Shown here one piece after another: positions 31,479-34,400 of a stretch of DNA of 43,036 nt. The notes under the pieces were generated by a model. It was not told the origin of the DNA. It was given only the letters and a program-made list of their open reading frames with translations, and ran no database searches. The translations under genes and the position numbers were made by a program. Source of the stretch: Shigella phage SFN6B; the sequence record KY684082, one strand, 5' to 3'. The stretch's first letter is position 1, and every line of letters begins with the position of its first letter.

Positions 31479-34400
31479 ATGGCTCAGTTTCTGAACCGAG
31501 AACCGAATCCACAGGAAAAGGATTCTGCTAAGGGCGCAACACTTAAACCTGCGCCTACAAGCGTAGATTGGAATGACGCAGGAGATGGTGGACTGAATGC
31601 ACTACAGCGTTCATCTATACTGGCCCAGGCTAAAACCCCTGCAACGTCAGCAGGAGAAAGCTTTGCTGCTGGAGTTGGTAACAGCATTATAGCTGCAGCC
31701 ATTAGAAAGGCCTCCTCCCCAACATTCGTCCCAGAGCAGGGGTTTGATGCTAAGAAACAACTAAGCACCGACTCCCGAGCTAAGCTCTACACTCCTAATC
31801 AGGAAGAGATTGATTACTTGCACGGGGCGGTGTCCCTGGATGATTATAATTATCGCATTCAGGCTATGCTAGAACAGCGTGACCGTGACCGTCAGATGTC
31901 TGATAACACGGTAGCTGGATTCGCCGGTGCACTGGCTGGTGATTCTCCGTTTATACTGGCTCCGATGTCAGCGGCGGGTATCGCTGGTCGTGCTGGCTTA
32001 GCAGTGCGTACTGCTATCCGTGCAGCGGATGTAGGTACAGCTGTCTATGCGCAGGACCAATTAGGGCAGTCTGCGGCAGTCACTGCTCTAGTAGCAGGCG
32101 TAGCCGGTCTAGACCAACTCTGGGATATCCGTAGGGCAGTGCGCGCGTCTACGGTAGCTGCCTCAACTACGAGAACTGCTGAGACCACACCTAATACTGC
32201 TACGGCAACTTCCCGCACTGCTCCGGAAGAAGTAGTAACAAGTCGCAATGGGGTAGATTCCCCCGCTGGTCCTTCTAATGCGCAAGCTGATAGTGCTGCG
32301 GCTGCTAAAACCACTGACGGTTTACCAGAAGGTTTAAGCTTGAACGTGCTGGATGACGTAGAGCACCACGCTTACTCTGGTGTACGTGTACCTGGTATAG
32401 AGGTAGAAGTAAATCGTGGAGATAAGTTGGTTGGTGTTGTGCAGGCTTATCGTGTAGGTGACGATTTACAAGTAGCACATGCTTGGGTTGACAAATCCCT
32501 GCGTGGCAAGGGAGTAGGCGCGAGTATGTACAAAGCACTGGTTAGGCGCGCTACTGATGCAGGGTATGGCAACTTGTTGTCTGATAGCTCCGTAACTGCG
32601 TCTGCTCAGCAGATGTGGCGCAAACTTGGTGCTACCAAAACCAAAGATTTTAAAGAACTAACGGATGGTATTGAAGGGCAGCGTTATGCGGTCTCTGCGG
32701 ATGAAAAGTCCCCACTCTTTACTTTGGACTTGAAACGTCCTGTGTTTGACCCAGATGCGCCTACAACTCGTACAGCAAGGGATACTAATGTTACAGGAGT
32801 AGGAGAAGGGGACACAATACTCACTAAGGTACTGGATGAACCGATCAAAGTCCTCAGAAACAATACTACTACTGTTAACATTAAAGCGCAGGACGTGGTT
32901 CGATTCCTAAAGACCTCTGAGCATTTATCTAAGGGTCAGAAGGCTATCCTGGACACCCTGGGCGATGCAGTACAGGACATTGATTTTAAGTTGGTGGCAG
33001 GCTCTTCTAACCGTAGCCACTACAGCTTTCCACTGGTATCAAGAACTGATAGAGGTTTTATATCTTTACGTGCCCCTAAGAAAGCTAATGGAAGTACTTG
33101 GGCAACTGTAGGTGATGCCCTACGCGCCATGGACGCCGATACTAGTCGAGTAGCAGTGCACGAACTGATTCACGCTGCCACCACTAGGGCCCTTAAGCGG
33201 AACCCTGAAATTGCTAGTAAGCTGGAAGAGGTGCGCGCTGCAATAGCAGCTGATTCAACACTCAGTGATAAGCTTAAGTATTATGCAAGCGATGTGCACG
33301 AGATGTTAGCTGGACTAGGTGATAGCCCTGAGTGGGTGGAGTATCTCTCTAGAACTCAATCCCCTACCGGTAAGAGTATGCTCCGCCAGATTGGTGAGTA
33401 CATCATGAATGCCCTTGGGATCCGTACTAAAGGTTCCGCTTTGGAAGATGTACTGGATGCATACGAAGACGCTGTTAAGTGGACCGCAAAAGATTACGCA
33501 GAACAAGTTCAGAGTTTCCGCAGCGAATCCTTCCAGGACTTAGCGGATACATCGGTTAAGAACGAGGCCTTGAAAGCTCAGGCTATGATGGACACGGCCA
33601 AGCGTAAGCTCGCCACTATGTTCTCACTCTATGACAATATTGCAGAGGGTAGCGAGGACCTAGCACGCTTACTGGTATCTGATGCTACTGCTGTAGGCGG
33701 TCGTAAACCGTCTGTGGTGGACTTCAAGCGTAACCTTACGTTGGAGATGGACGCTAGTGCTAGTGTAGTTGAGGACGCTATACTTGGTGCCCTCAAGGCC
33801 AAAGGTGTAGGTTTCCTAGACCGCTTCTTCCATCGTAGCAACTTCCGAGCAGCCCGTGCGGACTTAGAGGGTCGCTTGGGCCGTTACCTGGACTCTGCGT
33901 ACAGCGCTGAGGTTAACGGACGCCCCGTGCCTCTGCCGGACTCTGACTTAGTTCCGCTTGTTGAGGCGTACCGCAACTCCGGCTGGGCCAGTAAGTGGCA
34001 TGACCACATGACCGCTGCCGGTTTAGTGGATGAAGGTACTCTGGTTAAATCAGACTACTACTTCCCACGCCAGTACAGCTACGATAAGATGCGCCAGGGT
34101 ATTGCAAATGGGCGCTCTCTGGACAACTATCGGGACCTGTTCCGTCAGGCACTGCGTGATGTATACCCATCTATGGAGCCAGAAGTCGTCCAGCGCGTCG
34201 CTAAGGAAATGGTTGATGGTATCTACAACGGCCGCGCCGCTGCTTCTGGCCCTATGTGGAAGCAACTCATCAATGGTATGGGTAATGATGAAGTAGTCAT
34301 GGCTATGCGTAATGCTGGTGTAGATGAAAGTGCAATCCAGAGCTTCCTGGCGGGTAACGTCCGGGAATCTGGTGCTACATCTCCTGCTCGGAACCTGCGT

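Follow-up and report, generated by a model that had tools for sequence, protein, structure and literature searches.

The 43,036-bp stretch of DNA analysed here (the window; Shigella phage SFN6B, record KY684082) is a complete Drulisvirus-type genome (Autographiviridae, Slopekvirinae), of which Escherichia phage ZH5 is the nearest cultured relative. All window features described below lie on the plus strand. The subject of this contribution is an ATG-initiated open reading frame (ORF) at 31479..35741 that codes for a protein of 1420 amino acids (aa), a member of the gp16 class of internal virion or ejection proteins (IVP-D, 'tetrameric ejection protein'; PHROG 342), and within it a cassette that carries a minimal domain of the GNAT acetyltransferase fold. 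The 1420-aa protein matches the PHROG 342 'internal virion protein' profile with E 7.5e-236 over profile positions 180-1225, and its solved ejection-protein homologues are gp10 in PDB entry 23sg (chain S, 23sg_S; E 0), PhiM1 gp48, a 'tetrameric ejection protein' (8vb2_A; 8e-88), and 9sfn_G (7e-36). As the alignment to PHROG 342 begins only at profile position 180, the protein lacks the N-terminal lytic transglycosylase part, and Pfam gave no match to an SLT lytic transglycosylase domain. The N-terminal SLT domain is a T7-type feature that has been termed phage-specific in a review and hence does not define the class (PMC8954989).

The GNAT-fold domain comprises residues 286-418 (~133 aa; 32334..32732) and consists of β-strands, α3, β5, α4 and C-terminal strands; it is a 'minimal' GNAT because the canonical helices α1-α2 are missing. 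The whole protein matched Acetyltransf_1 with 29.1 bits and the excised segment with 32.9 bits (Pfam gathering cut-off 20.7); the respective values for Acetyltransf_10 were 25.8 and 29.8 bits (cut-off 23.6), and Acetyltransf_7 was matched by the excised segment with 28.0 bits (cut-off 27). With three Pfam GNAT families above their gathering cut-offs the signal is well beyond chance. PF14542, a Pfam family of minimal GNATs without the N-terminal helices, was matched with 25.6 bits, and a sequence search of the PDB with the domain returned weak GNAT matches only (E >= 0.28). Structure prediction with AlphaFold2 (AF2) from the single sequence gave a mediocre model (predicted local distance difference test, pLDDT, 61.8); with a family alignment of 22 sequences (alignment A2) the model reached a pLDDT of 83.9 and a predicted template modelling score (pTM) of 0.80. 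This model contains the GNAT core fold, i.e. the mixed β-sheet with α3 and α4. When it was compared with the PDB by Foldseek, the top 50 matches were all GNATs and 358 matches had E <= 0.001; the best match was the acetyl-CoA-bound protein acetyltransferase HP0935, closely followed by RimI. Structural matches in BFVD were likewise viral GNATs.

GNAT motif A, the pyrophosphate-binding loop for acetyl-CoA, is found in the β4-α3 loop as R342-G-K-G345-V-G347 (32502..32519). The A2 alignment (n=22) is very divergent, with identities of 24-34%. Nevertheless, R or Q is present at the first position of the motif in 21/22 sequences, the central glycine in 21/22 and G or A at the last position in 21/22, and Y351, A358, G362 and A376 are invariant. 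S368-D369 (32580..32585), located at the end of β5, form the start of a family-specific 'SDxSVS' motif in which the serine is kept in 21/22 and the aspartate in 20/22 sequences; both residues are candidates for a catalytic function or for substrate contact. Judging by the model, the assignment to the GNAT superfamily holds and the predicted acceptor site is atypical. A preliminary description of this DNA had proposed a GNAT domain with an R-x-x-G-x-G acetyl-CoA motif at 32334-32634 (plus strand; residues ~286-385) of a gp16-like protein. The span indeed translates exactly to the peptide quoted there, inside the 1420-aa ORF, and domain, protein class, motif and GNAT core were all borne out by the profile matches and the A2-based model given above. 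Only the extent was underestimated, since the real fold continues to residue 418 and is part of an insertion that comprises residues 225-420.

This insertion is a cassette of 196 aa (32151-32738) that consists of a linker and the GNAT fold. The linker (aa 225-285; 32151..32333) is the first part of the cassette, is rich in threonine, alanine, serine and proline (13 T, 13 A, 6 S and 5 P among 61 residues) and is absent from the orthologue of Escherichia phage Minorna and from 23sg_S. The Minorna protein (1232 aa) aligns with a clean gap of 188 aa from approximately residue 225 to 420 of the window protein, and in the solved 1239-aa chain 23sg_S residues 1-225 and 231-1239 align to residues 1-225 and 419-1420, respectively; whether the segment is an insertion had been left to an alignment of homologues in the preliminary description, and it is one. 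The site that accepts the cassette corresponds to residues 225-231 of the solved 23sg chain S. The conserved C-terminal body of the window protein (aa 421-1420; 32739..35738) is collinear with the insertion-free homologues and aligns to residues 231-1239 of 23sg_S and to Minorna.

The cassette is missing from the 1232-aa orthologue of nearly all other Drulisvirus phages. Among 249 phage records that contain the gene according to megablast, the inserted segment was detected by tblastn in only five, which represent three phages (ZH5, myPSH1235 and KpV48), and in all listed records without the cassette the gene match spans exactly 3699 nucleotides. A search of IMG/VR with the single domain returned the window genome itself (IMGVR_UViG_2974592773_000001), two near-identical metagenome contigs, myPSH1235 and KpV48. 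The reading frame of the cassette is intact in four phages and two metagenome contigs. Because the Minorna protein and 23sg_S do without the cassette and only 5/249 records carry the segment, the cassette is, as far as these alignments tell, a dispensable accessory insertion within Drulisvirus.

The GNAT part is under purifying selection. Between the window and myPSH1235 or KpV48 its ratio of non-synonymous to synonymous substitutions (dN/dS) is 0.10-0.11 at a synonymous divergence (dS) of 0.65-0.72, and the rest of the protein gave a dN/dS of 0.06-0.09 in the same comparison, so that the GNAT part is equally constrained. The linker evolves fast, with a dN/dS of 0.27-0.49 and an amino acid identity of 42-45% to myPSH1235 and KpV48. 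In dS, the GNAT part reaches only about half the value of its flanks (1.35-1.8). Within the first 224 codons of the gene (31479-32150) dS is 0.16 to Minorna versus 0.90 to ZH5. For the cassette and the next 280 codons dS to ZH5 is 0.13-0.19, and to Minorna, where comparable, 0.55; past codon 700 ZH5 and Minorna are about equidistant from the window (dS 0.43 and 0.41). This change of the nearest relative at an apparent breakpoint near the cassette (31479-32150 versus 32151-35741) indicates a recent within-gene recombination event. Because dS differs between the N-terminal part, the GNAT part and the flanks, the gene is regarded as a mosaic, and the cassette seems to have been transferred by recombination from one Drulisvirus lineage to another. 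A compositional anomaly of the insert was not detected (guanine-cytosine content 0.48-0.53 versus 0.51 for the window).

An exhaustive HMMER scan over 1.84 billion representative sequences identified 62 relatives of the domain, none closer than 25-45% identity. Many of them are proteins of 900-2500 aa, some with multiple copies of the domain, and the members that can be aligned along its full length share the pattern LRGKGxG..Y...A..GY..L.SDxSVS..A..VW..L..G ... PVF.L. Word-indexed protein searches gave no match with the domain alone and only four small proteins with the family alignment. Several of the relatives are gp16-class proteins themselves. P0020 (1446 aa, PHROG 342) carries the GNAT at aa 293-431 and P0032 (1322 aa, PHROG 6651) at aa 301-428; on its contig the P0032 gene is followed by a gene for a 511-aa protein and then by a T7-type small terminase gene. 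P0025, P0026 and P0008 are further gp16-class proteins with a GNAT at the equivalent relative place. In the 'internal virion protein' of Xylella phage Cota (1490 aa) an SLT domain (aa 15-123) is combined with the GNAT at aa 566-681 (E 3.9e-24 with the hidden Markov model, HMM, of the family). Pfam also reports a weak GNAT match in the Cota protein (aa 339-394), which is probably an artefact: these residues belong to the Gly-rich hydrophobic stretch alignable to T7 gp16, and only the copy at aa 566-681 is recognised by the family HMM. Besides the window protein, at least four gp16-class lineages, Cota among them, thus carry a GNAT of the SDxSVS subfamily at the equivalent site. In BLASTP comparisons with most of the GNAT-bearing carriers the GNAT segment was the sole part of the window protein that could be aligned.

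The same subfamily is also present in giant virion proteins of the co-injected polyvalent type, namely the DarB-like P0007 (PHROG 10089), P0014 with a Pfam LPD38 domain, and gp273 of the Tunturiibacter jumbo phage Tunturi_5, which combines NUDIX, ART-PolyVal and GNAT domains (A2 profile match at aa 1228-1277, E 6e-15). By its predicted domain content gp273 is a textbook polyvalent protein under a misleading annotation. Its gene (1489 aa) adjoins minor head and tail protein genes, and the Tunturi_5 record (PP885688) contains at least two 'MutT/NUDIX hydrolase' genes with the same GNAT subfamily, gp273 at 2320-6789 of the section of the record that was analysed and another at record position ~264285-264590. 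Solo proteins of ~160 aa on phage-like contigs constitute a third group of carriers. The metagenomic proteins P0001, P0004, P0006, P0009, P0011 and P0012 (900-1400 aa) have three to four tandem copies of related GNATs, and P0004 has an additional ParB C-terminal domain that lends it the flavour of a plasmid or conjugative element.

The gene for the 1420-aa protein is located downstream of the genes for tail tubular protein B (25762..28140; assigned from the ORF map with PHROG and Pfam labels), for a gp14-class internal virion protein of 195 aa (28142..28729; Pfam T7_gp14 2.6e-27, PHROG 4295) and for a gp15-class internal virion protein of 894 aa (28745..31429; PHROG 2083 'internal virion lysozyme motif', 1080.8 bits), and upstream of tail fibre and terminase genes. 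The complete gene order (25762-28140, 28142-28729, 28745-31429, 31479-35741, 36185-37231 and 37244-39402) matches the PHROG and Pfam labels. Between tail tubular protein B and the gp14-like gene a gp13 (IVP-A) gene is lacking, the ORFs 25762..28140 and 28142..28729 being adjoining. In databases, orthologues of the 1420-aa protein are labelled 'hypothetical', 'internal core protein', 'internal virion protein with endolysin domain' or 'peptidoglycan lytic exotransglycosylase'. The endolysin and exotransglycosylase labels look inherited from the T7 gp16 family, because the 1420-aa protein has no SLT match and the PHROG profile aligns only from position 180. The lysozyme-motif label (PHROG 2083) falls on the upstream 894-aa gp15-like protein and not on the gp16-class protein; the gp15-like protein contains FEGFREGKGNGSVGFG, and a Pfam scan of it revealed neither a lysozyme nor an SLT domain.

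Two further features are found in or next to the gene. About 140 aa downstream of the cassette the protein contains an HExxH motif (VAVHELIHAAT; aa 561-565, 33159-33173) that is invariant in the four aligned Drulisvirus proteins and is also present in the solved 23sg_S as well as in the polyvalent-type proteins P0007 and P0014. As in polyvalent proteins, the motif could mark the site of a zincin-like metallopeptidase. Release of the cassette by such a downstream metallopeptidase was considered and rejected: no Pfam or other profile matches at the site, and P0020, P0032, P0008 and Cota do not have the motif. Two ORFs for HNH homing endonucleases of the same family (24732-25199 and 35698-36231; PHROG 99, E 8e-54 and 3e-40) are also present in the window. 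The second one begins within the 3' end of the ejection-protein gene and is followed by the tail-fibre gene; in Minorna and KpV48 the tail-fibre gene follows directly after the ejection-protein gene and there is no space for an HNH ORF.

Where the domain would be located after ejection can be approached via T7. A Gly/Ala-rich hydrophobic segment (aa 143-217; 31905..32129) lies directly upstream of the insertion, and its Kyte-Doolittle profile (19-residue window) peaks at 1.2-1.5 at aa 152-168 and 202-208. From its resemblance in motif it probably corresponds to the part of T7 gp16 that is presumed to insert into the membrane. The equivalent hydrophobic segment of the Cota protein (aa 335-465) aligns to aa 305-421 of T7 gp16 (E 0.003), with the Cota GNAT downstream of it. 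The composite T7 model (PMC8954989) places aa 1-228 of gp16 in the periplasm; after them come putative membrane segments, and the hub that binds DNA in the cytoplasm is made up of gp16-C (aa 411-1118). By analogy, the GNAT domain would reside on the cytoplasmic side, on a flexible tether beside the DNA exit and with access to acetyl-CoA. As the window protein itself does not align directly to T7 gp16, this cytoplasmic placement can only be inferred.

We consider it possible, and put it forward tentatively as our best reading, that the cassette provides an accessory, pre-made and acetyl-CoA-dependent acyltransferase that is attached to the ejectosome at the point of DNA entry and modifies a host target before phage gene expression. 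The carrier protein would be packaged in the capsid core and then be expelled ahead of the DNA. It would refold to become part of the inner-membrane and cytoplasmic ejectosome, whereby the GNAT domain would reach the cytoplasmic side and be tethered where the DNA enters. With acetyl-CoA drawn from the host, it could there acetylate a host protein (a small molecule is the less likely substrate) ahead of any phage gene expression, as a first-wave activity for takeover or counter-defence that the phage can dispense with. We infer in this model that the domain is packaged intact, that it is exposed to the cytoplasm, that it is catalytically active, what kind of target it has and that it acts as an effector.

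Several observations weigh against an effector of this kind. BLASTP of the window protein against T7 gp16 gave nothing significant, and the topology is an extrapolation from the composite T7 model. The periplasm contains no acetyl-CoA, and a domain that was retained there would be inert. Only about four copies of the carrier would be expected per virion, by analogy to the tetramers of T7 gp16 and PhiM1 gp48, and the sister phages mostly thrive without the cassette. In the model the α1-α2 helices are absent and the first two strands are joined by a 13-residue loop of low confidence. These helices constitute a variable arm of the acceptor site that is typical of GNATs but not universal; as they contribute to the acceptor site, a pseudo-enzyme is conceivable. 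A canonical general-acid tyrosine was not identified in motif B, where the family has S-D. Finally, NCBIfam contained no equivalog or specific family that points to a substrate, and since the scores of the named enzymes were far under the cut-offs no substrate can be named.

A more far-reaching version of the same idea is rather speculative, and we regard it as unlikely to hold in full. It assumes that minimal SDxSVS GNATs have repeatedly been grafted onto cytoplasm-facing parts of ejectosomes, where they would neutralise by acetylation the first host factor that the genome meets, e.g. a nuclease, a defence sensor or the RNA polymerase. This would amount to a counter-defence that is independent of expression, with natural plus/minus variants among near-identical phages.

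Alternatively, the GNAT could act not on the next host but earlier, within the cell that produces the phage or inside the capsid core, in that it acetylates or chaperones core proteins or itself, or replaces the missing IVP-A. HHpred comparisons have related T7 IVP-A (gp13) and the syntenic genes of many podoviruses to acetyltransferases (Hardies et al. 2016, PMC4819975), the window phage lacks a gp13-like gene at the expected place between tail tubular protein B and the gp14-like gene, and the producer cell is rich in acetyl-CoA. However, comparison of the A2 profile with T7 gp13 by hhalign yielded a probability of only 1.4% and the domain has no match to Pfam Phage_T7_Gp13; on the basis of this profile comparison, a simple fusion of gp13 (IVP-A) into gp16 was ruled out. 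Moreover, ~244/249 of the related records have neither a gp13 gene nor the cassette, and therefore core assembly is independent of the cassette. The same GNAT subfamily also stands beside effector-type ART and NUDIX domains in polyvalent proteins. A role in assembly, or one directed at the phage itself, consequently appears improbable to us.

Equally doubtful in our view is a non-catalytic GNAT fold, i.e. a pseudo-enzyme that binds a host protein, CoA, a nucleotide or the end of the entering DNA, or that has a structural function such as that of a plug or spacer in the ejectosome. The missing α1-α2, the lack of a recognisable catalytic tyrosine or glutamate, the scores far under the cut-offs for named enzyme families and the weak sequence matches in the PDB (E >= 0.28) would all be in agreement with it. 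Against this stands the pyrophosphate loop Q/R-x-x-G-x-G/A: its retention in 21/22 members that share only 24-34% identity is hard to account for without cofactor binding. Minimal GNATs without the helices are, in addition, known as a Pfam family, namely that of the PF14542 match (25.6 bits). Least probable by far is a functionless passenger, a recently acquired foreign coding sequence that is tolerated in a permissive loop: the cassette is rare in the genus, dispensable and part of a mosaic region with an N-terminal part nearer to Minorna (dS 0.16) than to ZH5 (dS 0.90), but a dN/dS of 0.10 over a dS of 0.65-0.72, the intact frame in four phages and two metagenome contigs and the presence of the subfamily, with its motifs conserved, at the equivalent place of no fewer than four further ejection-protein lineages speak clearly against it.

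The ejection proteins of short-tailed phages are usually seen as a conduit that carries at most a domain for cutting the cell wall. If the cassette does encode an ejectosome-tethered acyltransferase, the concept of the co-injected effector, as represented by T4 Alt and the polyvalent proteins, would extend to the ejectosome itself, and an enzyme would be present at the site and time of greatest exposure of the phage genome. Tests of this are unusually easy to set up, because near-identical natural pairs differ by the cassette (window and ZH5 versus Minorna, AV102 and Hope) and the structure of a homologue without the cassette has been solved at high resolution (PDB 23sg). These Drulisvirus phages, which infect Klebsiella and E. 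coli, are candidates for therapy, and an accessory determinant of host range or anti-defence would have practical value.

In gene position and class, and in having a hydrophobic segment that is followed by a large C-terminal body, the window protein equals T7 gp16, PhiM1 gp48 (8vb2) and 23sg gp10, and outside the insertion it is collinear with 23sg_S. The difference to T7 gp16 lies in the accessory domains: T7 gp16 has an N-terminal SLT and, as already stated in the preliminary description, no acetyltransferase (Pfam finds SLT only), whereas the window protein has the GNAT cassette and no SLT. T7 gp13/IVP-A (PF11090) resembles the window domain in being a GNAT-like fold tied to the module of internal-virion-protein genes. 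In contrast to the window domain it is a small protein in its own right, for which Pfam gives no GNAT match of the motif-A type; conversely, the window protein has no PF11090 match, and a similarity of its domain to gp13 was not detected by hhalign (1.4%).

With the ADP-ribosyltransferase Alt of T4 the proposed effector shares the concept of an enzyme that is packaged in the capsid, co-injected and active before phage expression. Other co-injected phage enzymes are the virion RNA polymerases of N4 and phiKZ. The window domain differs from all of these in the predicted reaction, which is acetyl transfer and not ADP-ribosyl transfer or transcription, and in being a domain of the ejection conduit and not a free internal protein. 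Alt and co-injected proteins have been described as a precedent (PMC13282480). That phage GNATs can serve as early effectors of host shut-off or takeover is exemplified by Rac, a phage GNAT N-acetyltransferase that is reported to inactivate the RNA polymerase of P. aeruginosa (Ceyssens et al. 2020, PMC7552054). Unlike the window domain, Rac is a stand-alone early gene product that is made after infection and not delivered by the virion.

The closest parallel is provided by the polyvalent proteins that are packaged in virions or delivered by conjugation. They contain GNATs of RimI-like affinity, often beside ART domains, which are predicted to modify host proteins at entry (Iyer, Burroughs, Anand, de Souza & Aravind 2017, PMC5512222); gp16 or internal virion proteins are not mentioned in that study. 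As in polyvalent proteins, the GNAT of the window is embedded in a very large protein of a DNA-delivered class, and its subfamily is found in such proteins. Unlike them, its carrier is a core structural part of the podovirus ejectosome and not a string of effector domains; a second effector-type domain was not found in the 1420-aa protein by Pfam at E <= 1. Since only the GNAT was detected and the HExxH motif has no profile support, we do not class the window protein as polyvalent. The preliminary description had regarded such a domain as an undescribed feature of the protein class, and we indeed found no paper on a GNAT within a gp16-class ejection protein or on an acetyltransferase in Drulisvirus. 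Virion-packaged GNATs (PMC5512222; from computational analysis) and GNAT-like internal proteins of podoviruses (PMC4819975) had, however, already been reported. The preliminary reading is thus partly supported: domain and insertion are real and the effector role is plausible, but the novelty was overstated. While the principle of virion-delivered GNATs is known, what is new is the gp16-class carrier and the placement of the domain in the ejectosome.

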